Origin: an uncultured Alphaproteobacteria bacterium | GTDB lineage: Bacteria > Pseudomonadota > Alphaproteobacteria > RF32 > CAG-239 | Reading direction: 5' to 3' | Assembly: GCA_934229625.1 (NCBI GenBank) | Contig: CAKQDU010000001.1 | Coordinates: 83,078 to 147,077, forward strand | Length of the DNA: 64,000 nt | Shown: positions 7,442-60,084 of the stretch, piece after piece | Position numbering within the stretch: position 1 is the first letter of the stretch | How the letters are laid out: every line of letters starts with the position of its first letter | Made by a program: the position numbers and the translations under genes | The notes under the pieces: generated by a model | The model's database searches: none | What the model saw: the letters and a program-made list of their open reading frames with translations, nothing else | Told to the model about the DNA's origin: nothing

Positions 7442-9661
7442 ATGGTTGAAGAAAATGCCAAAATAAAAGATGTGCAACTCGGCGAAGAATTGAGCAAACG
7501 TTATCTTTCGTATGCTATGTCAACCATTGTTTCACGTTCTCTGCCGGATGTGCGCGACGGTTTGAAACCTGTTCACCGCCGTTTGATGTATGCCATGCGT
7601 CAGCTGCATTTGGACCCAAAAAACGGTTTTAAAAAATGCGCACGCGTGGTCGGCGATGTTATCGGTAAATATCACCCGCACGGCGATACGGCGGTTTATG
7701 GCGCTATGGTGCGTTTGGCGCAAGATTTTTCGGTGCGCTATCCTTTGGTTGACGGGCAGGGTAACTTTGGTAATATTGACGGCGACGGCGCCGCTGCCAT
7801 GCGTTATACAGAGGCTCGTTTAACCGAATTTGCTATTGATTTGATGGACGGCTTAAACGATGATGCCGTTGATTTTATGGATACGTATGACGGCGAAGAC
7901 AGCGAGCCGGTTGTGATGCCGGCAATGGTGCCAAACTTGCTGTGCAACGGTTCTATGGGTATTGCCGTGGGGATGGCGACCAATATTCCGCCGCATAATC
8001 TGAGCGAAATCAGCGACGCTTTATTGTATTTGATTGAAAATCCTGATTGCGATGACGAACCGCTGGTACGCCGCCTAAAAGGTCCGGACTTTCCGACCGG
8101 AGGAGTGATTGTTGATTCTTTTGACACTATTTTGAATAACTATAAACAAGGCAAGGGAAGTTTTCGTATCCGCGCCAAGTGGACAACCGAAGATTTGGGA
8201 CACGGACAGTATCAAATTGTGGTAACAGAGATTCCGTATCAGGTGATAAAATCTAAACTGATAGAAAAAATCGCCGAATTACTTCTGAATAAAAAACTTC
8301 CGTTTTTAAGCGATGTACGCGATGAATCGGCGCAAGACGTGCGTATTGTGCTGGAGCCTAAAAACCGCACGGTGGACGCCGCCATGCTGATGGAGCAATT
8401 ATTCCGCCAAACCGATTTAGAAGCCAAGTTTAATATGAATATGAACGTGTTGGATTTGGATTGCGTGCCGAGAGTGATGAGTATAAAAGAAGTGCTGCAT
8501 GACTATCTGGTGCATCGCAACGCTGTTTTGCTGCGTAAAATTAAGTTCCGCTTGAGTAAAATCAATGCGCGTTTGGAAATTTTGGAAGGCTATTTAATTG
8601 CTTATTTGAATTTGGACGAGATTATCCGCATAATCCGCGAAGAAGACGAGCCGAAAAAAGTTATGATGGCGGAGTTTAAACTGACTGATAATCAGGCTGA
8701 AGCCATTTTGAATATGAAACTGCGTAACTTGCGCAAGCTTGATGAAGAACAGATTAACGCCGAACATTCCGATTTACTGGAAGAAAAAGCCAATCTGGAA
8801 ATATTGCATAATGATGAGGCGCAGCGCTGGAAGGCTATTGCCGAAGAAATTAAAAAAACTAAAGAAAAATACAGTAAAAAAACGGCATTGGGACGTCGCC
8901 GCACCGAATTTGCCGAAGCTCCGGCGGATATAGATGTTCCGGTGGAAGCGTTGATAGAAAAAGAACCGATTACGGTTATTTTGTCGCAAAAAGGCTGGAT
9001 ACGCTGCATAAAAGGTCATGCCGATTTGAACGATGAGTTTAAGTTTAAAGACGATGACGCGTTGCTCTATGCTTTGCATGCGCAGACTACGGATAAAATT
9101 GTGTTGCTGGATAACAAAGGCAAGTTCTTTAACATTGCCGCTAAAGATATTCCAAGCGGCCGCGGTTTTGGTCAGCCGGTGCGCCTGATGATAGATTTGG
9201 CAAACAATGACGATGTTGTGGCAATGTTTGTATATGAGGCTGGAACAAGCTATTTGATTGCTTCGGACAAAGGCTATGGCTTTATTGTTGATGAAAATCA
9301 TTTACTGGCGCAAACTCGTAACGGGCGTAAAATTATGAATGTCGCCGATGATGAAAATATGAAATTTTGCTTGCCGATGACCGGAGATTATGTGGCTGTT
9401 GTTGGTGAAAATCGTCGTTTACTGGTGTTTAAAGCCGAGGAAATCCCAACTATGGCGCGCGGTCACGGTGTGTTGCTGCAAAAGTATAAGGACGGCAATA
9501 TATCGGATATTCAAATTTTCAAAGGCGAGGACGGTTTCAGCTATAACCGCGCCGGAGGAGTCAGTACCGAAAAAGAGCTTATCGGCTGGCTGGGACACCG
9601 GGCGCAAATCGGTAAAGTCGTACCGTTCGGTTTCCCAAAGAACAACAAGTTTTTGAAATGA
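7442..9661 (+). CDS. parC: DNA topoisomerase IV subunit A
   Basis: 739 aa. Topo IIA A-subunit motifs ([30 protein letters not shown] active-site Tyr region). Length and lack of a GyrA box favour ParC. Confidence 0.85.
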
Positions 9662-9760
9662 AACAATAAATTTTATTCAGCCTGAATGTTTTTTAATGTA
9701 GATTAAATCTTGTTGTAAATTCCCCTTGTTGCTCTATAAAAAGCAATAAGGGGAAAAACG

Positions 9761-10396
9761 TCAAAATTCTAATGATATATTACAATACGCGTTGGAGCTT
9801 TCACAAATTTTACAAGCCTCGTGAATTTCTTCCAATGAGGCTTGGGCAACGCATTTTATTTTCTCGTTGCAATAACTATCGCCATAAAACCATATACTTC
9901 TTCCGGTACCCCAAGCTGATGTTCTAACCGCAAAAACGACAGAGTGTAAAGGTTGTCCGAGATTTTGAAAAATAGAAACACATAGTTTGCTTGAAAAAGC
10001 CGGTGAAAAAAAGGTATCTTTTTTTGAAACTCCTCCGATGTAAAAATTTATTACTAATCTGTTATTGCGAGAAAATATATCAATCAAATTATTTTGACCA
10101 TCTTTTAAACTTTTCCAACCTTCATCATTGATAATCCAAGTTTGCGGTACTAAATTTGCAGCTTGTACATAATCATAAACAGGAACCATAGTATTATCGG
10201 AACTGAGATATTTAAGGTCATTAAGGTGTTCAAGCAATCCATAAATTAAGTAACTGTATTCTTCAATGAGTTTATTGCTTTTATATTTTTCCATGGCTTT
10301 GGAGTAACCGGCAATCCCACCGACGCTTAGTACAGCGATTATAGCAAGTACGCCGAGCATTTCTATCATGGAACGGCCTATTTGATTATATTTCAT
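9761..10396 (-). CDS. type IVb-like prepilin paralog P1 (short leader MKYNQIG, then RSMIEMLGVLAII...)
   Basis: Class III signal peptide with Glu at +5 and hydrophobic alpha1 helix. Conserved EYSYLIYGLLEHL. C-terminal FYGDxxC...CxxC...C motif. RBS AAGGAAG. Confidence 0.7.
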   Translation of the reverse strand: MKYNQIGRSMIEMLGVLAIIAVLSVGGIAGYSKAMEKYKSNKLIEEYSYLIYGLLEHLNDLKYLSSDNTMVPVYDYVQAANLVPQTWIINDEGWKSLKDGQNNLIDIFSRNNRLVINFYIGGVSKKDTFFSPAFSSKLCVSIFQNLGQPLHSVVFAVRTSAWGTGRSIWFYGDSYCNEKIKCVAQASLEEIHEACKICESSNAYCNISLEF

Positions 10397-10742
10397 AATA
10401 ACTTCCTTTCACATTGAAATTACAACAAAAAAGCCGCCGATAAGGCAGCTGGAAGTTCGTAACTACTTACTGTAAAATAGTGTAGCATATTAGCTAAAAG
10501 ATAACATATTTTGCTACCTTCCAGCCGTTAAAGCTAGAAAATTTAACGTCCTAAAGACGTACAGTAATGAGGCTACGACACCCCAGACAGACTATTGCCT
10601 ATCCAAAAGTCATTTTAACGAAATATTACATAAAAGTAAAGATGTTTTTCTTATTACAGCACATTGTTTTAGTAGTTGACTTATGGCGTAAGGCTGGTAT
10701 AGAATAAATGCTGTAATTAAACTAATTTAAGAGGAAAGAAAG

Positions 10743-10799
10743 ATGAAAAATAAGCTAAGCAAAGGTCTCTCTCTCTCTCTGCAAATCCTGAACATCTGA
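10743..10799 (+). CDS. 18-codon mini-ORF containing a (TC)7 tract, strong RBS
   Basis: AAGAGGAAAG SD 8 nt upstream of ATG. (TC)7T at 10766-10780 inside the ORF. Coding status uncertain. Confidence 0.2.
   Translation: MKNKLSKGLSLSLQILNI
10766..10780. repeat. (TC)7 dinucleotide microsatellite
   Basis: tctctctctctctct read directly from sequence. Confidence 0.9.
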
Positions 10800-11009
10800 T
10801 TAAAGGCGCTTTTTCTGCCGTTCAGCACGTTTTTACAGGGTTTGGCAGAAAAATTGATACTTTCGGAAATAACACATTAAAAAATAAAATAACAGGCGGC
10901 ACGTTTCCGCGCTTTTCCACCTCCACTTGCAACGTCATTCTTCGCCGGTACTCCCTGCCGGAAGTACCATGGCGGAGAATCCATAATGTCATTGCGTATG
11001 CAATGGCAA

Positions 11010-11568
11010 GTTGCTGGATAACAAAGGCAAGTTCTTTAACATTGCCGCTAAAGATATTCCAAGCGGCCGCGGTTTTGGTCAGCCGGTGCGCCTGATGATA
11101 GATTTGGCAAACAATGACGATGTTGTGGCAATGTTTGTATATGAGGCTGGAACAAGCTATTTGATTGCTTCGGACAAAGGCTATGGCTTTATTGTTGATG
11201 AAAATCATTTACTGGCGCAAACTCGTAACGGGCGTAAAATTATGAATGTCGCCGATGATGAAAATATGAAATTTTGCTTGCCGATGACCGGAGATTATGT
11301 GGCTGTTGTTGGTGAAAATCGTCGTTTACTGGTGTTTAAAGCCGAGGAAATCCCAACTATGGCGCGCGGTCACGGTGTGTTGCTGCAAAAGTATAAGGAC
11401 GGCAATATATCGGATATTCAAATTTTCAAAGGCGAGGACGGTTTCAGCTATAACCGCGCCGGCGGAGTCAGTACCGAAAAAGAGCTTATTGGTTGGTTGG
11501 GACACCGCGCGCAGATTGGAAAAGTTGTTCCATTCGGATTTCCTAAAACAAACAAATTTTTCAAATAA
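11010..11568 (+). pseudogene. duplicated 3' fragment of parC (C-terminal 185 codons, no own start)
   Basis: 11010-11462 is identical to parC 9103-9555. The last ~100 bp carry mostly synonymous divergence. No ribosome-binding site or native start. Confidence 0.75.
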
Positions 11569-13376: not shown

Positions 13377-13502
13377 GTTACACCTATGTTCTAATTTTGT
13401 TCTATAATAAACAGAATATAGCGGATGTCAAGTTTTGTTTTATTTTTGTATAAATATTCATTAAATATATCAATAAATCAATAAGCTATTGTGTGTCAAA
13501 AA

Positions 13503-13680
13503 GTGTGTAAAAAAAACGACCGTTTAAAATGGACAGTTTTTAGGCTGTTTTTTATAGTCTAGCAAAGGTTGCCGGAATTTGCAATAACTTTTTATATTTG
13601 CGATGTTTTTTGTGGTTTTGTAAGAATTATCAGCGTCTTATTCTGAGTGTGTAAAAATAACGGTCGTTTTTTTTACACAA
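13503..13680 (+). repeat. 178-bp conserved upstream element bounded by 22-bp inverted repeats (gtgtgtaaaaaaaacgaccgtt / aacggtcgttttttttacacaa); second copy reverse-complemented at 59746-59923
   Basis: Direct comparison of the two loci gives about 99% identity. The right end also forms a perfect hairpin just upstream of the RBS. Confidence 0.8.
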
Positions 13681-13695
13681 TTGAGGAGGAATAAG

Positions 13696-14424
13696 ATGTT
13701 TGATGGTATAGAATTTTTCAAAGGAAAGAGCAGAGGTGAGGGTTCTGGAGTGCTTTGCGTTGCTCGCAATGACGTTTGCTCTGCCGGTCGGTCAATGATA
13801 GAAATGCTCGGCGTATTGGCAATTGTCGGCGTGTTAAGCGTTGGCGGCATCGCCGGCTACTCCAAAGCGATGGAAAAGTTTAAGCTTAGTAAGGCTCTGG
13901 ATGAATACAGCTATCTTATTTATGGGTTGCTGGAACACTTAGATGAAATTAAATATTCCACTAAATCAGGAGATGGAAATGCTACTCCTGTTGTGGAATT
14001 AGCTAACAATTTGAATTTGGTTCCTCCGACATGGACAATGATAGCAAACAATCTTGATGTTCGTCATAAAAATTTATTTGAAGACCCATATAACAATCTT
14101 TTATCTATTTACTCAAAAGACGGAAATTTGCGTTTTGATTTTATTTTAGGCGGTTCGCAATTTCCGGACGAAGGCTCTTGGATAACTGAAAATTTTTCAA
14201 CCAAATTCTGTATGGAATTGGTAAACAATGTTGTCAAACCATTGCATTCTTCTTTGGAATTTTTATTTTTTTACAGGTCAAAAGGAAGCTCATCCACTTT
14301 TTATGGTGATAAAAAGTGTTCTTCCGGCCGCAAATGTTTGAGTGATATCAGTATAAAAGAAGTGTATGATAATTGCAAACGTTGCTCAAAAAAAGAAGTT
14401 TGTTCCGTAACTATAGACTTTTAA
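13696..14424 (+). CDS. type IVb-like prepilin paralog P2 with 31-aa leader
   Basis: Strong SD GAGGAGGA before the ATG at 13696. Leader ends ...CSAG then RSMIEMLGVLAIVGVLSVGG. Conserved EYSYLIYGLLEHL and the C-terminal 5-Cys motif ending TIDF. Confidence 0.7.
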   Translation: MFDGIEFFKGKSRGEGSGVLCVARNDVCSAGRSMIEMLGVLAIVGVLSVGGIAGYSKAMEKFKLSKALDEYSYLIYGLLEHLDEIKYSTKSGDGNATPVVELANNLNLVPPTWTMIANNLDVRHKNLFEDPYNNLLSIYSKDGNLRFDFILGGSQFPDEGSWITENFSTKFCMELVNNVVKPLHSSLEFLFFYRSKGSSSTFYGDKKCSSGRKCLSDISIKEVYDNCKRCSKKEVCSVTIDF

Positions 14425-21443: not shown

Positions 21444-23243
21444 TTGTATATGTATAAGTTTTTGATTTTTTTGAGTGCTTTATGGTGGTGCAACGCGGCA
21501 ATGGCGGCGGAAATTCCGGCGTATGACGAGGCGTGGCTTAAATTGTTGCATTATCATAAAACGCTCGGCGGCTATCGTGGTTTGGTAGAAAATCAGGATT
21601 TTTATATAAGTCCGGACGGACGGGAAAATCCCATTGCAGAATTTGAGGCGGAAATTAAGGCTTTTGCTGATGGAGCAGAAAAGTGCCGTTTTCCGGCAAG
21701 ATTCAATTATTTGAAACAGTTGGGAAAAGTGCAGGGTGATTTAAAAAATTGCAATGATTATCAGCAATTTATGCAAGATGTGCGTCCGAATGGTATTACT
21801 ATTTTGTTTACCAATGCTTATATGAGTAATCCGGCTTCGTTGTTCGGTCATACGCTGGTGCGTATAGATACGGCGCGCAAAGGGACGCAAATGTTAGCGC
21901 ACGGTTCAAATTTTGGGGCGGATTCCGGAACAGAACACGGTGTTATGTTCGCACTCAAAGGCTTATTCGGCGGATATCTTGGAGTATATAGCGTCAGTCC
22001 GTATTGGGAAATAATAAATACCTACAATAATATCGAAAATAGAGATATTTGGGAATATAATCTTAATTTAACAGATGAAGAAAAACAAAAGTTTGTCGAC
22101 CATCTTTACGAAATGCGGCAAGCCAAAATCCGCTACTATTTTTTAAGTAAAAACTGCTCGTATCTGATTTTGGAATTACTGGAGGCGGTGCGCCCGAGTT
22201 TGGAGCTGACCAGACAATATCCGGCGTGGGTAATTCCGTTGGATACGCTCAAAACAATCAATAACGAGCCGAATTTGGTTAAGTCACAAAACTATCGTCC
22301 GGCGCGCTATACGCAAATTCAAAATTTGATAAAAGCAATGAATAAGCAACAATATGCCGCATTTTTGCGCGGTATAAAAGAATATGATTTTACGGCGGAA
22401 AATTTATCAGATGAGGAAAAATCAGCTGTTTATGAGGCGATTTATCAATATTTTCAATATGAATACACCGCTGGAAATATGCCGCTGAAAGAATATCGAA
22501 AGGCTAGTTTCGGCGTGTTGCGCAAACGCAGCGCTTTGCCGATTGGGGAAAAAGTTCAGCCAGTTGGTGAAAATCCGGCGTTGTCGCACGATTCTATGCA
22601 AATATCATTCAGCGGCGGGGCGGAACGCCATAAAAGCTTTGAAGAAGTGGAAATCCGTCCGGCTTATACGGCGTTGACAGATAGCAGTTTCGGATTGGTT
22701 AAAGGGGCGGAAATCAGCGTGATGTCCAGCAAATGGCGCTATTATAACCAATCTCACAAAACTGTTTTGCAAAATTTTGCGCCGATAAAAATTAAATCCT
22801 TAGTGCCGGCGGGCAGGGTGTTTGACCCGATTTCTTATGCCATCGGTGCGGAAATTAAACGCGATTATAATCCGCAGAATTATGATGAAGGTTATGTCGG
22901 TTACGGCTATGGCGGAGTAGGTAAAACCATTGCGTTTCCGGCAAATATTTGGCTTTATGGTTTGCTGAAAGTTAACGGTGCGTACGGCGGTTTTATTCCG
23001 CACAACAGCTGGGGCGGATTGGCGCCGGAAATTGGAATTTTAAAAGATTTTGGCGCGGTGCGGCTGCATTTTAACGCCGAAAAAACATGGGCTACCCGTA
23101 AATTCGGCGACAGGCTGATTTATAAAGCTGCCGCTTCGCTAGGTATAACGGATAATTTATCGCTGGAAATCGGCTATGAGGGAAGTCACAATATTGGCCG
23201 CAACAGCGAAAGCTGGCAGCTTTGGCTGCAAAAAAGCTTCTGA
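21444..23243 (+). CDS. DUF4105 (Lnb N-terminal domain) protein with C-terminal beta-rich domain
   Basis: 599 aa, signal peptide. AWLKLLHYHKT...YISPDGRENP...CRFPARFNYL pattern typical of DUF4105. Confidence 0.5.
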   Translation: MYMYKFLIFLSALWWCNAAMAAEIPAYDEAWLKLLHYHKTLGGYRGLVENQDFYISPDGRENPIAEFEAEIKAFADGAEKCRFPARFNYLKQLGKVQGDLKNCNDYQQFMQDVRPNGITILFTNAYMSNPASLFGHTLVRIDTARKGTQMLAHGSNFGADSGTEHGVMFALKGLFGGYLGVYSVSPYWEIINTYNNIENRDIWEYNLNLTDEEKQKFVDHLYEMRQAKIRYYFLSKNCSYLILELLEAVRPSLELTRQYPAWVIPLDTLKTINNEPNLVKSQNYRPARYTQIQNLIKAMNKQQYAAFLRGIKEYDFTAENLSDEEKSAVYEAIYQYFQYEYTAGNMPLKEYRKASFGVLRKRSALPIGEKVQPVGENPALSHDSMQISFSGGAERHKSFEEVEIRPAYTALTDSSFGLVKGAEISVMSSKWRYYNQSHKTVLQNFAPIKIKSLVPAGRVFDPISYAIGAEIKRDYNPQNYDEGYVGYGYGGVGKTIAFPANIWLYGLLKVNGAYGGFIPHNSWGGLAPEIGILKDFGAVRLHFNAEKTWATRKFGDRLIYKAAASLGITDNLSLEIGYEGSHNIGRNSESWQLWLQKSF

Positions 23244-23249
23244 AATTTC

Positions 23250-23310
23250 TTGACAAAAATTACAAAATAGGATAAATAAAAGACATAATTTTATTTTTAT
23301 GTGTAACTTA
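23250..23310 (+). promoter_or_regulatory. conserved promoter-leader cassette (TTGACA-N17-TAAATA; leader CATAATTTTATTTTTATGT)
   Basis: Sequence identity with the cassettes at 879, 25299 and 26600. Confidence 0.55.
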
Positions 23311-23323
23311 AATTATTTGGCTT

Positions 23324-23794
23324 ATGAATTTTTATCGTAATTTTATGGCTAAGCATGAGGAAAAAATTTCCGGCTTTGAAGTTCTTTTAATGCTTGTTAT
23401 TACCGCATTTTTAGGAGAAATGTTTATTTTTTCCTTGTCTGTGGCGGATAGAACATCTAGCTTGGTTCTTTTTGTGATGCTTGTTTTAAGCTTGGCGTCT
23501 GTTCATTACTTTTGGGTGTTTTTGGCAGACTATAAACAGTTTGGCAAGGATATTGATGAGGCCTGTAAGCAAGCAGAAAAGAAATGGGGCGAGGCTAAGA
23601 AAAAATTTGAAAAAGAAAAGGATGCTGAATTTAGGATTGCATTTAGAAAAATTAAGCTGGATGTGGTTAAGTTTTGTATCTGTTTTCTGCCCGTAGGTTT
23701 GCTCGGGTATAAAGTTGACTGGTTGCCGATTTTTCATAATGTAAATGAATGGCTGAATGTACTGAGCAATATCTTTGTTGGAATTTTAAACTAA
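23324..23794 (+). CDS. small membrane protein, family A copy 1
   Basis: 156 aa. Paralog of 26673-27155, collinear similarity (VLFVMLVLSLASVHYFWVFLADYKQFGK... versus VLFAMLILGLLSIYWFSVFLADNKKFAK...). Confidence 0.5.
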   Translation: MNFYRNFMAKHEEKISGFEVLLMLVITAFLGEMFIFSLSVADRTSSLVLFVMLVLSLASVHYFWVFLADYKQFGKDIDEACKQAEKKWGEAKKKFEKEKDAEFRIAFRKIKLDVVKFCICFLPVGLLGYKVDWLPIFHNVNEWLNVLSNIFVGILN

Positions 23795-23799
23795 ATTTA

Positions 23800-23838
23800 A
23801 AAACTGCGGAGATATAACAATTTCCGCGTTTTTTTATT
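23800..23838 (+). terminator. intrinsic terminator
   Basis: gcggagatataacaatttccgc hairpin plus TTTTTTT. Confidence 0.6.
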
Positions 23839-23845
23839 TTAAAAC

Positions 23846-23910
23846 TTGACAAAATATCAAAATATCTTAGAGTAACTGACATAGTTTTATTTTTATGTAT
23901 AATTTAAATT
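23846..23910 (+). promoter_or_regulatory. variant promoter-leader cassette (TTGACA ... TTTTATTTTTATGT)
   Basis: Shares the -35 element and leader core with the other cassettes. Confidence 0.45.
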
Positions 23911-23918
23911 ATTAAGGT

Positions 23919-24362
23919 ATGAAAAATGTTTTATATGTTTTATTTGTTGGATGGCTTATATATTTAGGCATTCCTATGCTGTTTGTCACAAAATTTGGCA
24001 TTATAGCATTGTTTATTTTTTCTTTTTGTCTTTCGATGTTTATCGTTAGGCTAATTAAAAATAATGAAAAGTACGAGCTGTATTCGGATATTTATGATAA
24101 AATAGAAGCTGCTCGAACTGATTGTATAGATTCAGAAACAAAGATTAAGGAAATTTTGGACGAATATAATCTTAATATTGACGCATTTAAAATTGTCGGT
24201 TTGGAAATATTGAACAGAAAGTCGGAGGCGCGTACTGCTTCTGTAGATAATGAACATGCGATTCTATATACTTTGTTACTTGGGTCGTTATTTGTATTTC
24301 CGGCTATGATTGATGAGCCTTTTACGATTATAAATAAATTTTGGGAATCTGTGATATTTTAG
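23919..24362 (+). CDS. small membrane protein, family B copy 1
   Basis: 147 aa. Paralog of 26099-26545 (shared EKYELYSDIYDK / EKYELYSEVYDK and NLDI motifs). Confidence 0.5.
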   Translation: MKNVLYVLFVGWLIYLGIPMLFVTKFGIIALFIFSFCLSMFIVRLIKNNEKYELYSDIYDKIEAARTDCIDSETKIKEILDEYNLNIDAFKIVGLEILNRKSEARTASVDNEHAILYTLLLGSLFVFPAMIDEPFTIINKFWESVIF

Positions 24363-24480
24363 AACAGAGTGATAAAAAACGTGAAAGCGATAAAGTTTTT
24401 GCCGTTTTTATATATAAATCCATGCAGAAAAGAGAGATTTATCAGTTTGGCTGAAAAATCTCTTTTTTTGTGCAATTATC

Positions 24481-24557
24481 TTGACAAAAAAACAAAGATA
24501 TGTTTAATATAAAATGAATTTTGTATATTTATGTTTAATTTTTAATTCTTTTTTATT
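24481..24557 (+). promoter_or_regulatory. promoter TTGACA-N18-TAATAT plus type-2 leader (TATGTTTAATTTTTAATTCTTTTTTATTATG)
   Basis: The last 36 nt are identical to 25349-25384. Confidence 0.5.
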
Positions 24558-25199
24558 ATGATTGTAAATATTAATGCAAGTGCTGATAGTCCTGTTTATT
24601 TTGAGCTGAACGAAGCTGATGAAATTGTTATCGTCGGTGACAAAAAGGATGAGCTACTACGTTATTATATGGGTAAAAGTTTAAATGGACCTGAAATAAA
24701 ACATCCAACAAGACCGAAATTGTGTGTTGATGACTGTAAGGATTGGCATATTATCGTTACATTTAGATGCACTCAGAATGTTATGGTTAATGGTCTAGTT
24801 GCCGAGTTAACTAATGATATTGTAGTTCATGGTTTAGTTGCTGAGGTAATTAAGGAGTGTTTAAAAAAAGGTTCTTCATTTGATTACAAAGATGAAAATT
24901 TGCATTTTGTGGATGAACAAATACAGTTAAAAAGTAAGGTTGATATTCTTGAAAGATGTGTTAGACGTCTCGCAAAAATGCAAAATAAGGTTAATACTAT
25001 AGAAGGTCATATTGCTGGTTTTGCGCAAATGCAAAATAGAATTAACACACTTGAAAACTGTGTGAAACGTCTTGCGCAAATGCTTAATAAGGTTAATACT
25101 AACAGACGCTCTATTGCAGGTAATATTGATATTCTTGCACGTAAACTCAAGGATATTGAAGATGACCGTAATCACGCATACGATGATTGGCAGAGTTAA
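24558..25199 (+). CDS. coiled-coil protein with two ~35-aa C-terminal repeats
   Basis: 213 aa. Repeats ERCVRRLAKMQNKVNTIEGHIAGFAQMQNRINTL / ENCVKRLAQMLNKVNTNRRSIAGNIDILARKLKDI. Confidence 0.45.
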   Translation: MIVNINASADSPVYFELNEADEIVIVGDKKDELLRYYMGKSLNGPEIKHPTRPKLCVDDCKDWHIIVTFRCTQNVMVNGLVAELTNDIVVHGLVAEVIKECLKKGSSFDYKDENLHFVDEQIQLKSKVDILERCVRRLAKMQNKVNTIEGHIAGFAQMQNRINTLENCVKRLAQMLNKVNTNRRSIAGNIDILARKLKDIEDDRNHAYDDWQS

Positions 25200-25254
25200 A
25201 TTTGATAATGAGCCTTATTATAACTAATAGCTTTTTACCATGTATTTATCTAAA

Positions 25255-25289
25255 TTCAAAGAAACTGTGAAGTCATTATGATTTCACAG
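25255..25289 (+). terminator. intrinsic terminator (ctgtgaagtcat / atgatttcacag plus T8); identical copy at 26555-26588
   Basis: Near-perfect 12-bp stem with one mismatch, then TTTTTTTT. Confidence 0.7.
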
Positions 25290-25298
25290 TTTTTTTTG

Positions 25299-25384
25299 TT
25301 TAAAATGATTGACAAAAATTAAAAGCATCGCTAAACTAAATACATAATTTTATATTTATGTTTAATTTTTAATTCTTTTTTATT
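25299..25384 (+). promoter_or_regulatory. conserved promoter-leader cassette (TTGACA-N17-TAAACT) fused to type-2 leader
   Basis: About 110 bp including the upstream terminator is near-identical to 26550-26660. Confidence 0.6.
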
Positions 25385-25966
25385 ATGAGTGCAGAATTTT
25401 GGAATTATGTTACAAATCATCATTTGGATGTTTTTGTATTTGTTGCAATGTGTGTAATGTTTTTTTCATGTCTGCTGTTAACAATTTTATTTTTTGTTTT
25501 TAAACAAAATTATAAATGCAAGCAGCAGGAAACGGAAGGTAAACTTCTTGAGGCAGAGCGCAAGCAGCAAGAAGCGGAAAGCAAACTTCTTGAGGCAGAA
25601 CGCAAGCAGCAAGAAATCAACCAGCAGTTTCAACAAGCCAGGAAAAAACTTTTTGAGTCTGAAAAACTTCGCTTTAGCATGGTCGGAATTCCCGGAGATG
25701 AATATTGGAAAAGCGCCATTTCTAAATACGAAATATTTAGAACGTATGACGATTTTAACGATGAAAGCAAAATGAAGCGCCAAGCTATCGCTCTCCAAAT
25801 TTTTAAAATGCCGAACAAAGAGTTTACAAAGGCTGAATTGTACAAACAATTTAAGCAGTTGTATAAGGACTATATTGGCATTTTGCCTGGTTATGATGTC
25901 ATGAAGCCTGCCAAAGAATATATATTGAAATCTATTTATACCGAATTGTACTTTAGTGTAAGTTAA
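25385..25966 (+). CDS. membrane-anchored coiled-coil protein with tandem KLLEAERKQQE repeats
   Basis: 193 aa. N-terminal TM helix. 42-bp tandem DNA repeat at 25541-25615. Confidence 0.5.
   Translation: MSAEFWNYVTNHHLDVFVFVAMCVMFFSCLLLTILFFVFKQNYKCKQQETEGKLLEAERKQQEAESKLLEAERKQQEINQQFQQARKKLFESEKLRFSMVGIPGDEYWKSAISKYEIFRTYDDFNDESKMKRQAIALQIFKMPNKEFTKAELYKQFKQLYKDYIGILPGYDVMKPAKEYILKSIYTELYFSVS
25541..25615 (+). repeat. about 1.8 copies of a 42-bp in-frame tandem repeat
   Basis: aaacttcttgaggcagagcgcaagcagcaagaagcggaaagc repeated with one substitution. Confidence 0.8.
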
Positions 25967-26098
25967 TACATTACTTAATAGATATTACCCCGAATTTACA
26001 GGTGAATATCTATAGAAAAGCCAACTTTCAGGCTTTTTCTTATTGCTGCAATACGTTATATTGATTTTCAATAGTTCTCATTTTAAATTATTAAGCGC

Positions 26099-26545
26099 AT
26101 GAAAAAGTATGTATATGTTTTTGGTATCTTATGGTTAATAGCTATAGGTGTACCATTATTATTTAATCCAACCATTGCTTTAGGAGTTGTGTTTTTTCTA
26201 TCGTGCATCGGCGTTCCATTTTGGGCATCAGAATTTGAAAAAATTGAAAAATATGAGCTTTATTCTGAAGTGTATGATAAGTTATATGCTATTAAGGAAG
26301 AAAATTTTGATGTATATTATAAGACTCAAAAAATTTTAGCTTCATATAATCTTGATATTTGGACTAAGAATGCTTTAAATATCGTTAAATCTAAAAGAGA
26401 TGCTGCTTTTGAGGAGTGTCAGGAAAATTATGTAACTTTTAGATTTTCGCCTATAGTTATAATAATATGGTTTATGTTACCATTGTTTGGAAATGAGGCT
26501 CCTTTTGAAGTGGTTTGGGGATTTTGGAAGACAATGATACTTTAA
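26099..26545 (+). CDS. small membrane protein, family B copy 2
   Basis: 148 aa paralog of 23919-24362. Confidence 0.5.
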   Translation: MKKYVYVFGILWLIAIGVPLLFNPTIALGVVFFLSCIGVPFWASEFEKIEKYELYSEVYDKLYAIKEENFDVYYKTQKILASYNLDIWTKNALNIVKSKRDAAFEECQENYVTFRFSPIVIIIWFMLPLFGNEAPFEVVWGFWKTMIL

Positions 26546-26554
26546 TGATAAAAA

Positions 26555-26588
26555 AACTGTGAAGTCATTATGATTTCACAGTTTTTTT
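26555..26588 (+). terminator. intrinsic terminator, copy of 25255-25289
   Basis: Identical hairpin plus T-run. Confidence 0.7.
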
Positions 26589-26599
26589 GTTTAAAATGA

Positions 26600-26672
26600 T
26601 TGACAAAAATTAAAAATATTACTAAACTAAACGCATAATTTTATTTTTATGTTTTACTCAAATTATTAGCTT
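26600..26672 (+). promoter_or_regulatory. conserved promoter-leader cassette (TTGACA 26600-26605, N17, TAAACT 26623-26628)
   Basis: Identical core to the cassettes at 879 and 25299. Confidence 0.6.
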
Positions 26673-27155
26673 ATGATTTTGAATGAGATTAACAACTATG
26701 AGGAAAAAATTGCAAAAGAAGAAAAATACTCTGAATTTGCGTTTTTTGTAGGTGTGATTTATGTAATGTTTTTTGGCTTTGCATTTATTCATTCCCTGTC
26801 TTCAGCGGATAAAACTTCAAGTTTTGTTTTATTTGCAATGCTGATTTTAGGACTGTTGTCTATCTATTGGTTTTCAGTATTTTTGGCGGATAATAAGAAA
26901 TTTGCTAAAGAAGTATTTAAAGCTTGGAGACAAAGTGAAAAAATGTGGGGAGATGCTAAAGAAAAGTTTGACAAAGAAAAAAATGCCGAATTTGAAATTA
27001 TGAGTAAAAAAGTTAAGGGCAATATTGTTAAATTTGGAATTTTCTTTTTCTCTACTGCCTTGTTGAGTTTAAAAGTTGATTGGCTGACTGTTTTCCATAA
27101 TATGGCAGAATGGCTGCATAATTTAGGAGCTATCTTTGTTGGAATTTTCAGCTAG
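26673..27155 (+). CDS. small membrane protein, family A copy 2
   Basis: 160 aa paralog of 23324-23794. Confidence 0.5.
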   Translation: MILNEINNYEEKIAKEEKYSEFAFFVGVIYVMFFGFAFIHSLSSADKTSSFVLFAMLILGLLSIYWFSVFLADNKKFAKEVFKAWRQSEKMWGDAKEKFDKEKNAEFEIMSKKVKGNIVKFGIFFFSTALLSLKVDWLTVFHNMAEWLHNLGAIFVGIFS

Positions 27156-27161
27156 ATTCAA

Positions 27162-27198
27162 AAAAACAGTGAAATCGTTAGGACTTCACTGTTTTTTT
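27162..27198. terminator. bidirectional terminator of the same hairpin family (cagtgaaatc / gacttcactg)
   Basis: Hairpin flanked by A7 and T7, between convergent A2 and def. Confidence 0.6.
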
Positions 27199-37083: not shown

Positions 37084-37267
37084 AAATTTGGTCAAAATAT
37101 TTCAAGAAATAAAAACGGTTGTGTTAAAACAGCCGTTTTTTATATTGAAAATTGTAGATTAAAATCGTTTGTTTTCTGTTTTTAGGTTACATTTTATCGT
37201 TGCTTTAATTTTTTGCTTGATTATTAAGCATTCTATACTCTATACTAGCAATGTACTGAGAAGTGCA

Positions 37268-37448
37268 GGGCGTCAGAAACCCTTTATACATACAGTCGTT
37301 GAGCATAATACGACTTAAAATTTGTTATGCCGATTTTCTGTTCGCTGGACGGATGTCGGCTAAATAAGGTTTCGGCCAAATAAGCCGAGCCGTTTGTATG
37401 TATACGGTTTCTGAACATCCGCCCGCTTTGCAGCGGGTTTTATTTTTT
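37268..37448 (+). ncRNA. candidate terminator/antiterminator leader RNA upstream of pilin P3
   Basis: Imperfect 28/35-nt inverted repeat (37268-37295 versus 37390-37424). Its 3' arm overlaps the hairpin cccgctttgcagcggg plus U-run (37420-37448), which ends 25 nt before the RBS. Confidence 0.4.
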
Positions 37449-37471
37449 GTGTTTTTAGGAGGTTTGGAAAT

Positions 37472-38119
37472 ATGAATAAAAATGTTAAAAACAGGCAGTG
37501 CAGCGGTCGCTCAATGATAGAAATGCTGGGGGTACTATCTATCATCGGCGTGCTGAGTGTCGGCGGTATTGCCGGTTATTCCAAAGCTATGCTGAATTAT
37601 AAATTAAATAAATCTGTCGAAGCACATCGCGATGTTATATTTGGTCTAGTTCATTATAAAGATAGGCTAAAACCGGCAGAAGGTCAGAATTTAATCAATG
37701 AAGAAGTGGCATCTTTAGGACTTAAACCTAATAATTGGCGCAAAGATGGTGTTTATCTGATTGATGATATGAATAACACGATATTTATTGGTATTTATGG
37801 CGATGATAAACATATAGGATATGAAATCAGAATGCCTGCCAGAACGATTTCTCATAATGCAGATGGAAAAGTAGTGCAAAGCTATCCTTATAATTTTTGC
37901 GTGACAGCTATTAAACAACTGATTATTCCGTTGTCGGAAATGATTGAGGAATTTTCTTTTTATAGAACTAAAAGCGGTTGGGATTCTTTTTATGGCAGTA
38001 AATTTTGTGGTAAAGATTGCAAATGCATAAGTCAAATAAATGTTTCTCAGATGTTCGCCGAATGCCAGACTTGCGGTAAATCTGACGGTGAAGGTTGTTC
38101 AATTATCTTAAAATTTTAA
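37472..38119 (+). CDS. type IVb-like prepilin paralog P3 (12-aa leader)
   Basis: MNKNVKNRQCSG then RSMIEMLGVLSIIGVLSVGGIAGYSKAM. C-terminal FYGSKFCGKDCKC...CQTCGKSDGEGCSIILKF. RBS AGGAGG. Confidence 0.65.
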   Translation: MNKNVKNRQCSGRSMIEMLGVLSIIGVLSVGGIAGYSKAMLNYKLNKSVEAHRDVIFGLVHYKDRLKPAEGQNLINEEVASLGLKPNNWRKDGVYLIDDMNNTIFIGIYGDDKHIGYEIRMPARTISHNADGKVVQSYPYNFCVTAIKQLIIPLSEMIEEFSFYRTKSGWDSFYGSKFCGKDCKCISQINVSQMFAECQTCGKSDGEGCSIILKF

Positions 38120-54340: not shown

Positions 54341-55063
54341 TTATTTAAATTCAAAACTTACGTCGCAGTCGGTATTTTTCTTGTCACAGGAAGCGCAAAC
54401 TTCCTGAAAATCTTTTAATGTAGCCGTAGGTAAACATTTTTCTCCGTCTTGACAATACTTTGCTCCATAAAAATATATGTTATGCGACCCCTGCCACGAC
54501 CTTGCCAAATAAATTTCAGAGGACAAAGGCATAGCTATATTCTTAAACAACTCCAAACAAAAATCTTCTGCAAATCCTTCTGTAGTGGTTACATTATCAG
54601 CACTTTTAGTAAAACCGCCGATTTTTATGCTTACTGAAACAGCGCCTTTTCTAGTATATGGATAAACAATATTACCGAAAGTGTCATAAAAGGTATTGGT
54701 TGATTTTGTATAACTATCTGGTAACAACCCCAACGCATAAACGGTGTCTGCCAATGGTATTTGCCTAACCTGTTCATCTGATTTTAAGCTATCCAAATGC
54801 TCCAGAAGTCCGGCAAAAAACATAGAGTATTCTCCGATTGTCTTGTTCATTTTCCACATTCTCATTGCTTTGCTATAGCCTGCAATACCGGCAACGGACA
54901 GAACACCGACAATCGCCAGCACGCCGAGCATTTCTATCATACTCCGCCCAGCTGAAACCGCGTATAGCTGCGCTTCTAAAGCAGTTTTACGCTGTCTCAA
55001 AAAATTTATGTATTCCCCATATACACTAGGATTTTTTGTATTTTCTTTTAATTTATCAGACAT
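54341..55063 (-). CDS. type IVb-like prepilin paralog P4 (39-aa leader)
   Basis: AGGAG SD before the Met at 55063. ...AVSAG then RSMIEMLGVLAIVGVLSVAGIAGYSKAM. C-terminal FYGAKYCQDGEKC...CASCDKKNTDCDVSFEFK. Confidence 0.65.
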   Translation of the reverse strand: MSDKLKENTKNPSVYGEYINFLRQRKTALEAQLYAVSAGRSMIEMLGVLAIVGVLSVAGIAGYSKAMRMWKMNKTIGEYSMFFAGLLEHLDSLKSDEQVRQIPLADTVYALGLLPDSYTKSTNTFYDTFGNIVYPYTRKGAVSVSIKIGGFTKSADNVTTTEGFAEDFCLELFKNIAMPLSSEIYLARSWQGSHNIYFYGAKYCQDGEKCLPTATLKDFQEVCASCDKKNTDCDVSFEFK

Positions 55064-55407
55064 ATATTGAACTCCTAAAAAATTACAGAAAAACCGCTTA
55101 AAATAAGCGGTCGGAGAGTTCAACAATCATATCTGCTTAAATGATTCTTTTAGCCTTTAAAGCCATATTGTGTCAGAGATATATTATACAGCTTTTGAAC
55201 ATACGCTAAAAGCTCCCCGACCATATTGCTATGTATCGGGGATATATTTAGCTATCGGCAATAATCAAACCGCCGATAATTTAACGATGTTATATCCTAA
55301 CACCGAAGCAGATAAGAGCCGTTGAAAGCTCCGCGCTAACCGCGCTTGTTTTAATATATAAAGAAATAAAATAAAAAGCAAACAAATTCTTATGGGATAA
55401 AATTTTA

Positions 55408-59025: not shown

Positions 59026-59730
59026 TCACAACGGAAAACGGATAGTTATACAGCATACTCCTGAAGCATCGCAATGTTCACAGGCCGATTTTATTTGAGC
59101 CAAAGTAGCATTGCTTAAACACATACGCCCGTTTGAGCAATAAGCATCGCCATAAAATGTTATATCGCCTTTAGTTGAATTAAAAGTGTTTATTGAATAA
59201 ACAGCGGAATGCAGTGGCGTCATAATATTGTTAAACATCTCAACGCAAAGCTTCGATGAAAAGTTTGCGGATATCTTGCTGTCTGCGGTTTCTTGCCAGC
59301 CGCCTAAATAAAAATCCAGAAGCAAAACATTGCCGCCGCTATAAGACTGCACAATATTGCCGCTGTTATCCCACATTGCCTTATTATCTTCGGCTGTCCA
59401 GCTGGACGGAACAATATTTGTGGCGCGGGCAAAGTCTGTGAAATTAAATTTTCCCATACCGACCGGAACACTTTTTAAATCATCTATATGCTCCAGCAGA
59501 CCATATATAAGATAGCTATATTCGCTGATAGTTTTATTAAGTTTGAACTTTTCCATCGCTTTGGAGTAGCCGGCAATGCCTCCGACCGAAAGAACTCCGA
59601 CAATAGCAAGCACGCCCAGCATTTCTATCATTGACCGACCGGCTGAACAAATGTCATTGCGAGCAACGCGAAGCAATCCAGAACCCTCGCCCCTGCTCTG
59701 TTCTCTTAAAAATTCTATACTCTTAAACAT
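59026..59730 (-). CDS. type IVb-like prepilin paralog P5 (31-aa leader)
   Basis: GAGGAGGA SD before the Met at 59730. Leader and first ~85 residues nearly identical to P2. C-terminal FYGDAYCSNGRMC...CEHCDASGVCCITIRFPL. Confidence 0.7.
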   Translation of the reverse strand: MFKSIEFLREQSRGEGSGLLRVARNDICSAGRSMIEMLGVLAIVGVLSVGGIAGYSKAMEKFKLNKTISEYSYLIYGLLEHIDDLKSVPVGMGKFNFTDFARATNIVPSSWTAEDNKAMWDNSGNIVQSYSGGNVLLLDFYLGGWQETADSKISANFSSKLCVEMFNNIMTPLHSAVYSINTFNSTKGDITFYGDAYCSNGRMCLSNATLAQIKSACEHCDASGVCCITIRFPL

Positions 59731-59745
59731 CTTGTTCCTCCTCAA

Positions 59746-59923
59746 TTGTGTAAAAAAAACGACCGTTATTTTTACACACTCAGAATAAGACGCTGATAAT
59801 TCTTACAAAACCACAAAAAACATCGCAAATATAAAAAGTTATTGCAAATTCCGGCAACCTTTGCTAGACTACAAAAAACAGCCTAAAAACTGTCCATTTT
59901 AAACGGTCGTTTTTTTTACACAC
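59746..59923 (-). repeat. second copy of the 178-bp inverted-repeat-bounded upstream element (reverse complement of 13503-13680)
   Basis: Base-by-base comparison. One substitution noted. Confidence 0.8.
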
Positions 59924-60084
59924 TTTTCATTCAAATCTCCGCCAAAATCAAGAATTAAAAGACCAATATTTTGACACTATATATTTTATAGGTTGAAAAT
60001 ATTGATAAAACTCTTGCATTAAGCAATTTTTAGTCTATGCTGAGAATAATTTATAAAAAATTATATTAAAGGATTGCTATAATA

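Follow-up and report, generated by a model that had tools for sequence, protein, structure and literature searches.

A constrained, inverted-repeat-bounded module upstream of dispersed type IVb-like pilin genes in uncultured gut Alphaproteobacteria

INTRODUCTION

In the invertible promoters (invertons) of Escherichia coli (fimS), Bacteroides fragilis (the Mpi promoters), and Clostridioides difficile (the RecV flg and cwpV switches), a promoter segment of ~130 to 300 bp lies between inverted repeats of ~20 bp and precedes genes for surface structures. The same repeats recur at several loci, and the class is defined by the occurrence of both orientations. In another arrangement, found in the sap genes of Campylobacter fetus, the Piv system of Moraxella, and pilE/pilS of Neisseria, a conserved 5′ region is joined to variable gene bodies, and crossover in the 5′ region makes new combinations. 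The looping operators of gal (OE/OI) and ara (O2/I1) consist of two palindromic sites around a promoter, with a fixed separation and bendable DNA between them. The Correia elements of Neisseria are ~100 to 150 bp long, have terminal inverted repeats of ~26 bp, and can supply promoters and transcript hairpins. Here we describe an upstream module that resembles each of these systems in part. It is present in two near-identical copies in a 64,000-nucleotide (nt) stretch (hereafter, the window) of contig CAKQDU010000001.1 (assembly GCA_934229625.1) from an uncultured alphaproteobacterium, where it precedes two pilin genes that we call P2 and P5.

In uncultured Alphaproteobacteria of the human gut, the module goes with a single subfamily of type IVb-like pilin genes. 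It is specific to these genes, it is strongly constrained in sequence, it has two palindromic sites at a fixed spacing, and it lies in one orientation. Recombination between copies has taken place at the module and the adjoining leader codons. We found no homologous element described in Rfam or in the literature, and our literature search found nothing specific on invertons or pilins in these bacteria.

RESULTS

Two copies of the module in the window

The positions of the features are collected in Table 1; retrieved contigs and loci are given L numbers, and positions without an L number are those of the window. The initial annotation had reported an almost identical upstream element of ~178 bp bounded by inverted repeats, and both parts of that description held up. 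When 13499 to 13680 on the plus strand is aligned without gaps to 59746 to 59927 on the minus strand, the sole difference is an A or a G at 13554. One further mismatch is added when the comparison is extended to the start codons. In copy A the arms of the inverted repeat (13501 to 13524 and 13659 to 13682) are 24 nt long, 96% complementary, and 134 nt apart, and identical arms are present in copy B (59744 to 59767 and 59902 to 59925). The exact core common to the arms is 21 nt, TGTGTAAAAAAAACGACCGTT; a 13-mer core occurs 4 times in the window versus 0.1 expected by chance. Inverted repeats around a short segment, as in an inverton, were found in both window copies and at all 10 loci described below.

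Each repeat is part of a larger, 32-bp site. In the distal site, TGTGTAAAAAAAACG-AC-CGTTTAAAATGGACA, the inner and outer arms agree at 10/15 positions by direct reading of the sequence; in the proximal palindrome, TGTGTAAAAATAACG-GT-CGTTTTTTTTACACA, the arms agree at 14/15 positions. Taken as outer arm plus core, one site repeats the other exactly in inverted orientation (21/21), and the central dinucleotides, AC and GT, are reverse complementary. The centers of the sites are 144 bp apart in 9/10 loci and one base closer in the other (L031). The proximal palindrome folds as a 13-pair hairpin (10+3 pairs) that ends 3 nt short of GAGGAGG, as had been annotated from the window.

TABLE 1 Positions of features in the window
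Feature	Position	Strand	Remarks
Upstream module, copy A	13500-13695	+	Before pilin P2; 2/196 nt differ from copy B
Upstream module, copy B	59731-59926	-	Before pilin P5; distal site 59891-59922, proximal palindrome 59747-59778
Distal 32-bp pseudo-palindromic site	13504-13535	+	Outer arm and core are the left inverted repeat
Conserved interior	13536-13611	+	Promoter-like hexamers and phased T-tracts
Variable spacer, 36 nt	13612-13647	+	Nearly fixed length, constant in 9/10 loci
Proximal 32-bp palindrome	13648-13679	+	Right half is the right inverted repeat
Ribosome-binding site	13683-13689	+	GAGGAGG, direct reading; 6 nt ahead of the ATG at 13696
Pilin P2, 242 residues	13696-14424	+	30-residue leader, GRSMIEML cleavage-type motif, long N-terminal helix
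Pilin P5, 234 residues	59026-59730	-	
Crossover interval of the 46-kb inversion	13705-13719	+	Leader codons 4 to 8; mirror 59707-59721; from informative sites
Left arm of the inverted pair I1, 455 nt	13499-13953		Right arm 59473-59927; 89% identical
Other pilin gene	9761-10396	-	
Other pilin gene	37472-38119	+	
Other pilin gene	54341-55126	-	

Two details of other copies touch on the repeats. At L010:3795-3810 and L011:7155-7170 the distal flank reads ACACAATTGAGG, resembling the ribosome-binding-site flank of the window copies, so that in these two loci the inverted repeat reaches ~28 nt. Within the module at L050:2340-2360, direct repeats 11 nt apart (CAGTTTTT and CTGTTTTTT) both carry the same G-to-A change, which may reflect chance or the concerted change of a repeated binding motif.

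Similarity between the two window copies extends past the proximal palindrome into the ribosome-binding site and the pilin leader and N-terminal helix, as had been claimed, and makes up the inverted pair I1. The estimate of ~13 substitutions over the first ~85 codons was right for amino acids and wrong for DNA: from 13696 to 13950 there are 49 differences (~81% identity). The coding sequences had also been called unrelated beyond an LLEH motif, which proved mistaken; P2 and P5 are 51% identical from end to end (E = 1e-80) and have the same cysteine pattern.

The pilin genes and their family

P2 and P5 have the class III signal and the long hydrophobic helix of type IV pilins. All 48 aligned homologs keep the motif G/RSMIE-MLGVLAIVGVLSVGG (G/RSMIEMLGVLAI), which has Glu at +5, unchanged, and the length of the leader, 30 residues, agrees with that of type IVb pilins. 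Neither protein matched a Pfam or NCBIfam family above threshold; below threshold there were matches only to the N-terminal methylation motif (13 to 16 bits; 13 to 14 bits for Pfam N_methyl and TIGR02532). In an AlphaFold2 model (pLDDT, predicted local distance difference test, 77.5), a 46-residue N-terminal helix packs on a beta sheet, and P2 and P5 are thus predicted to have the fold of type IVb pilins. The label of pilin paralogs given to them in the initial annotation stands.

The family is very large, with >7,700 relatives in the databases and five members in the window. Human gut metagenomes, those of the Hadza and of other cohorts among them, yielded many contigs that encode the exact P2 and P5 proteins, and the named relatives are uncultured Alphaproteobacteria. 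The sole sign of pilus assembly machinery was a gene for a T2SSE ATPase, situated on the edge of L032. Among the database proteins P0004 to P0117 (the corresponding window positions are 13738 to 13790), the leaders from MFKSIEFFKGKSRG to GRSMIEML span 30 to ~190 residues. They are made of recurring in-frame modules (GLLRRYTPRNDV, KASPSPARGEG, ILGLVPRIFWQRVSNLVNKLALLLHK, REDSWDKPKNDG, and MDTRLPQPAGCGDKYDVSG), which look like translated repeat DNA that may have been inserted without breaking the frame.

The module is restricted to pilin genes and highly constrained

We collected the DNA around diverse homologs that share the leader start MFKSIEFFKGKSRG. This gave 10 distinct loci with the module, including the two window copies (winA and winB); the others were L010, L011, L027, L028 to L031, L032 to L034, L035, L036 and L037, and L050. 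At these loci the pilin genes sit singly between unrelated housekeeping genes that differ from locus to locus; upstream neighbors include dinB, gltX, a dCMP deaminase gene, and an L17 gene. The pilins themselves may be only 43 to 52% identical to P2. All of the complete copies (33/33) have the same spacing and the same orientation and are fused to the 5′ end of a pilin gene. Conversely, no copy of the module or of a half-site was found outside pilin modules in the 432 kb examined. Stand-alone half-sites would have hinted at a regulon, and that idea was dropped.

Constraint was measured part by part among 9 distinct copies. The distal inverted repeat (21 nt) was 100% identical, with 21/21 columns invariant, and it is also invariant in L050. 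Mean identity was 98% for the proximal palindrome (33 nt, 31/33 columns invariant) and 94% for the interior (87 nt, 71/87 columns invariant). In the 36-nt spacer it fell to 63%, with 13/36 columns invariant and the length fixed. For comparison, the GRSMIEML...KAM helix (24 codons) had a mean identity of 47% at synonymous third positions, only 2/24 of which were invariant. The two window copies gave the same picture: their modules are 99.4% identical, versus 58% identity at the synonymous sites of the adjacent helix, which is identical in protein sequence. Because the module is far more conserved than synonymous sites, we conclude that the pilin genes are old and that the DNA upstream of them has been held constant. 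This constancy probably comes mostly from selection. Gene conversion may have made some contribution, as the 5′ coding part shows patches of it.

Orientation of the interior

The orientation of the interior relative to the pilin gene was uniform in the 33 complete copies, which came from ~25 samples and the 10 loci. An inverted interior would produce the junctions ...CTGTCCATTTTAAACGGTCGTTTTTTTTACACAATTGAGG and AAAGTGTGTAAAAAAAACGACCGTTATTTTTACACACTC. Scanning the genome and metagenome collections for the flipped-junction pattern gave one match each (in L010 and L011), and both were false positives; they are ordinary copies in which the distal flank happens to have the sequence noted above. 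Seven contigs end inside the module. None of the seven ends (0/7) is at an inner edge of a repeat, and they are located at positions that are polymorphic between copies. No serine or tyrosine recombinase genes were found, by eye or with Pfam, in the window or in the locus flanks that were examined.

These tests used consensus assemblies and not reads, so a minority orientation is possible. How readily assemblies can hide a switch is illustrated by the (CT)n tract in the leaders of other pilin genes of the same genomes (see below), which is off frame in 13/14 contigs; a comparably biased inverton would often be missed. Among the 33 consensus copies, however, the two orientations that define an inverton were not both present.

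Promoter-like signals inside the module

The upstream flanks are unrelated between loci and often contain divergent genes; for this reason the pilin promoter is probably inside the module. Facing the gene are two sigma-70-like matches, TGGACA-17-TATAGT (13530 to 13558) and TTGCCG-18-TATATT (13569 to 13598). A third match, TTTACA-18-GATAAT, is on the minus strand and faces away from the gene (13655 to 13626). It is kept as TTTACA-18-nAnAAT in all three sequence types of the spacer, which is merely suggestive. No sigma-54 element (GG-N10-GC) was spotted by eye in the module. We consider all of these promoter-like matches doubtful as judged from their sequences. Position 13554, where the window copies have A or G, is position 2 of TATAGT. 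It was tried as a marker of expressed versus silent copies and dropped when both copies proved to have G in strains with the inverted arrangement described next.

Recombination at the module and leader

We looked up the window proteins that flank the two copies in public assemblies and found two chromosomal orders, within the same species, of the 46-kb segment between the copies. In the order of the window (L040, L042, and L046, plus 5 to 7 further similar contigs per junction), dinB is followed by the module, P2, and dnaK, and gltX is followed by the module and P5. In the inverted order (L041 and L043 to L045, plus 11 further similar contigs for each junction), gltX is followed by the module and the body of P2 with dnaK, and dinB is followed by the module and the body of P5. 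The genes at the junctions are reciprocal chimeras: the protein next to gltX starts MFKS-IEFFKGK and continues as the P2 body, and that next to dinB starts MFDG-IEFLREQ and continues as the P5 body. Chimeric 5′/3′ combinations, which the initial annotation had proposed to look for, thus exist at both junctions.

The crossover was mapped from the patterns of informative sites in L041 and L043 to L045 versus copies A and B, together with the chimeric proteins. It falls 25 to 40 bases outside the inverted repeat, and small conversion patches lie further into the gene. Because the crossover is outside the inverted repeats, the inversion looks homologous rather than site specific; that is, it looks like homologous recombination between the arms of the 455-nt inverted pair. 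All contigs with the inverted order have a common breakpoint and are without the insertion that holds the pilin gene P1. The simplest reading is one inherited event dividing two strain lineages.

Smaller exchanges were also seen. L028 and L029 share one module and one pilin, but their DNA differs outward from the edge of the left repeat; L029 and L035 have a common flank but different pilins, with the break within the module; L036 and L037 have one cassette in two contexts; and L028 and L031 are alike in flank and pilin but not in the interior of the module. All cases of exchange are in metagenome contigs, and single ones may be misjoins; the inversion is backed at both junctions by many independent assemblies. 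The proposal that a conserved 5′ module and variable 3′ bodies form a substrate for recombination is supported by the reciprocal chimeras, the 46-kb inversion, and the swaps of flank, pilin, and interior. The module and the conserved 5′ coding part evidently serve as recombination handles. As in sap-type shuffling, the shared 5′ region holds the crossover of the inversion; what was not seen is one promoter moved between silent genes, and 10/10 loci have a full module, a ribosome-binding site, and an ATG.

The 3′ end of parC is duplicated in the window (9104 to 9661 and 11011 to 11568, the first 300 nt being 100% identical), and the duplicates flank an insert of ~1.35 kb (9662 to 11010) that holds P1. 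In the strains with the inverted order, parC directly adjoins a gene for a 175-residue protein, without the insert. Read from the sequence, this is the signature of a circular piece integrated by a single crossover.

Other pilin leaders and repeats in the window

In P1 and its relatives (window, 10397 to 10610, minus strand; L032:1999-2215, minus strand; and L048:2300-2520, plus strand), a structured leader of ~200 nt replaces the inverted-repeat module and ends in an intrinsic terminator just ahead of the ribosome-binding site. Compensatory changes were found in 11/52 predicted pairs, from three sequences only, and there was no Rfam match. In a relative that is more distant, the pilin at the orthologous gltX locus (L048) carries this type of leader. 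The leader is possibly a new riboswitch or attenuator. P3 and P4 also have long leaders ending in terminator hairpins (37200 to 37470, plus strand, and 55064 to 55400, minus strand, respectively). The P3 leader is conserved before P0006-type pilins (L017:2760-2975), and its start, GTCTGTCT(G/A)GGG, is common with the P1 leader. A sub-threshold Rfam match to sRNA-Xcc1 at 37347 to 37432 was weak (30.7 bits; E = 0.25).

A third 5′ module of pilin genes, encoding MKNKL(S/F)KGLSLS..., has a (CT)n tract in its leader codons (window, 10743 to 10790, plus strand; L028, L030, L032 to L034, and L050). The number of repeats varies at the same locus: 7 in the window versus 8 in L001 to L005; 7, 8, and 6 in L032, L033, and L034; and 7 in L028 versus 8 in L030. 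Only n = 6 is in frame. From these counts, the variation appears to be slipped-strand phase variation. In the window this module is a remnant fused to a parC fragment.

In the region from 23243 to 27197, the window also contains six small paralogous open reading frames for membrane or coiled-coil proteins (23324 to 27155); the stretches 828 to 946 and 1660 to 1701 were noted together with this region. Each frame is preceded by a copy of a promoter-like repeat bearing TTGACA, and several frames have a near-identical terminator hairpin, AAACTGTGAAGTCATTATGATTTCACAGTTTTTT, after them.

DISCUSSION

The explanation that we rank first, at a probability of about 0.42, is that the module is a fixed promoter and operator unit with two predicted 32-bp palindromic protein-binding sites, and that it doubles as a block of homology. 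A single dedicated protein that binds DNA sequence specifically would occupy each palindrome as a dimer. Both dimers together would bracket the pilin promoter, one site being upstream and the other in the early transcribed region, and control would be exerted without a change in the DNA, as by operator looping at gal or ara. The constant distance between the sites and the bendability of the T-tracts may serve the geometry of such a loop, and the near identity of the window copies would be due to purifying selection with some gene conversion and not to recent duplication. We rank the fixed promoter first because it requires nothing that was sought in vain and accounts for the palindromes, the spacing, the T-tracts, and the uniform orientation. 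A general precedent comes from the DeepInverton study, which reports that inverted repeats also surround many noninvertible promoters (PMC11602134).

Several observations weigh against a fixed promoter, which calls for a postulated regulator. The outer arms and cores of the 32-bp sites are identical (21/21), while their inner arms differ in a conserved way around the AC and GT centers. Exact outer arms and complementary centers would not be needed by operators and resemble the crossover sites of recombinases. The 144 bp between the site centers is 13.7 helical turns, a nonintegral number. The promoter itself is weakly indicated: hexamer matches in AT-rich DNA make poor evidence, position 2 of TATAGT is split evenly between A and G (5 loci each), and no patch of the interior is less conserved than the −35-like TTGCCG. 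In addition, the (CT)n slippage of the sister pilins suggests that the family is under selection for stochastic switching.

The last point leads to the strongest competitor, which we regard as possible although somewhat unlikely: that the module is an invertible promoter in which an unlinked recombinase binds the 32-bp sites as dimers and flips the 134-bp interior, turning the pilin on and off, with one orientation dominating to the point that consensus assemblies would show no other. Inverted repeats of 21 to 24 nt around 134 bp are within the size range of known switches, such as flg and cwpV of C. difficile and the polysaccharide promoters of B. fragilis. Both ends are full pseudo-palindromes with inverted central dinucleotides, and the repeats are identical at all loci, as a single shared enzyme would require. 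There are hexamers inside; the key positions of the minus-strand match coincide with conserved columns of the otherwise variable spacer, and after inversion this match would face the gene. The length is fixed, the T-tracts are phased, and the module precedes a family of surface appendages that also uses (CT)n slippage. In our judgment, the exact outer arms and cores, the complementary centers, the size class, and the switching lifestyle suit recombinase sites better than operators. Against these arguments stand the single orientation of all complete copies, the two false positives that were the only yield of the flipped-junction scan, the contig ends at polymorphic spots instead of inner repeat edges, the lack of a serine or tyrosine recombinase gene in the window and the flanks examined, and the position of the crossover, outside the repeats, in the only recombination event that was resolved. 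An invertible switch, which the initial annotation had entertained, is therefore not what these assemblies show. If the module did invert, it would represent a new family of invertible promoters, with sites of the form TGTGTAAAAAAAACG-AC/GT-..., through which one unlinked recombinase phase-varies many dispersed type IVb-like pilins; we hold this to be a minority possibility.

The remaining explanations fare worse. It is improbable that the module acts as RNA, either as a proximal hairpin in the 5′ untranslated region that sets the stability or translation of the mRNA or, in the manner of Correia elements, as a wholly transcribed unit with a processed 21-bp stem. The strand does fold well (z-score, −3.9), with the repeats forming a long stem and the hairpin stopping 3 nt before the ribosome-binding site, and the sole change in the palindrome (C to T in L035) preserves a G-U pair. 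Still, no Rfam 15 family matched in the window at the gathering threshold, and none matched the module even at E values up to 10. RNAalifold found no compensatory change on either strand (the putative 5′ untranslated region and the minus-strand interior), and the consensus energies were weak. Moreover, the repeats are invariant in sequence beyond what mere pairing demands, the unrelated flanks beyond the left repeat make a shared upstream promoter unlikely, and RNA structure does not explain a spacer that varies in sequence and not in length. An apparent G-U bias favoring the minus strand vanished, the plus strand folding better. The suggestion of a mobile carrier, in which an element like a miniature inverted-repeat transposable element brought a promoter to the pilins, has a very low probability. 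Such an element would fit the terminal inverted repeats of 21 to 24 nt, the length of ~180 bp, and the abrupt left edge at the left repeat. With AAAG as the left flank and ATTG as the right flank, however, there is no target-site duplication; to the right, homology extends past the ribosome-binding site and the leader into the gene; every copy in the 432 kb is joined to a pilin 5′ end in one orientation, with no solo or pilin-free copies; and the inverted repeat had no match in viral contigs. Least probable of all is the fallback offered by the initial annotation, a plain recent duplication of a pilin gene and its upstream region in which the module is nothing special. The region is common to two paralogs, as a duplication would make it, but the contrast between 99.4% identity in the module and 58% at the adjacent synonymous sites refutes it, and the same module precedes pilins only 43 to 52% identical to P2.

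In one subfamily of this large, dispersed pilin family, the module shows near-complete sequence constraint and appears to be built like a switch that a protein operates. Recombination at the module and the conserved 5′ coding part reshuffles pilin genes and, between strains, has inverted as much as 46 kb of the chromosome. Together with the slippage tract and the leader RNA, the module points to multilayered surface variation in a common, unstudied lineage of the human gut. If the module were an inverton, it would stand beside (CT)n slippage and the structured leader RNA as one of three alternative controls of a single pilin family. The exact sequences obtained from the module allow phase variation to be tested in existing read data.

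How the module relates to described systems depends on the feature compared. Like the Correia elements, it is short and bounded by inverted repeats, with promoter-like and hairpin-forming sequences, but those elements number in the hundreds, lie in many contexts, and have TA target duplications, whereas the module was found only fused to the 5′ ends of pilin genes. In size, in repeat length, in its place before surface genes, and in the recurrence of the same repeats at several loci, it is like fimS, the Mpi promoters, and the RecV switches. The ACG-NN-CGT core next to an A-tract may be likened to hix sites or the Mpi-type repeat. In contrast to these promoters, it has a single orientation (33/33) and no linked recombinase, and it shares no sequence homology with them. 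With the gal and ara operators it has in common two palindromic sites around a putative promoter, a fixed separation, and bendable DNA between. Unlike those operators, it has longer sites (32 bp) whose outer halves repeat each other exactly in inverted orientation, and the repressor is postulated. The rearrangements have a parallel in sap, Piv, and pilE/pilS, where a conserved 5′ region, variable bodies, and inversion or conversion with 5′ crossover likewise make new combinations. Here, however, each copy has a complete module and start codon, so exchange takes place without an obvious switch in expression, and the 46-kb inversion looks like a single event that divided two lineages rather than a high-frequency switch.

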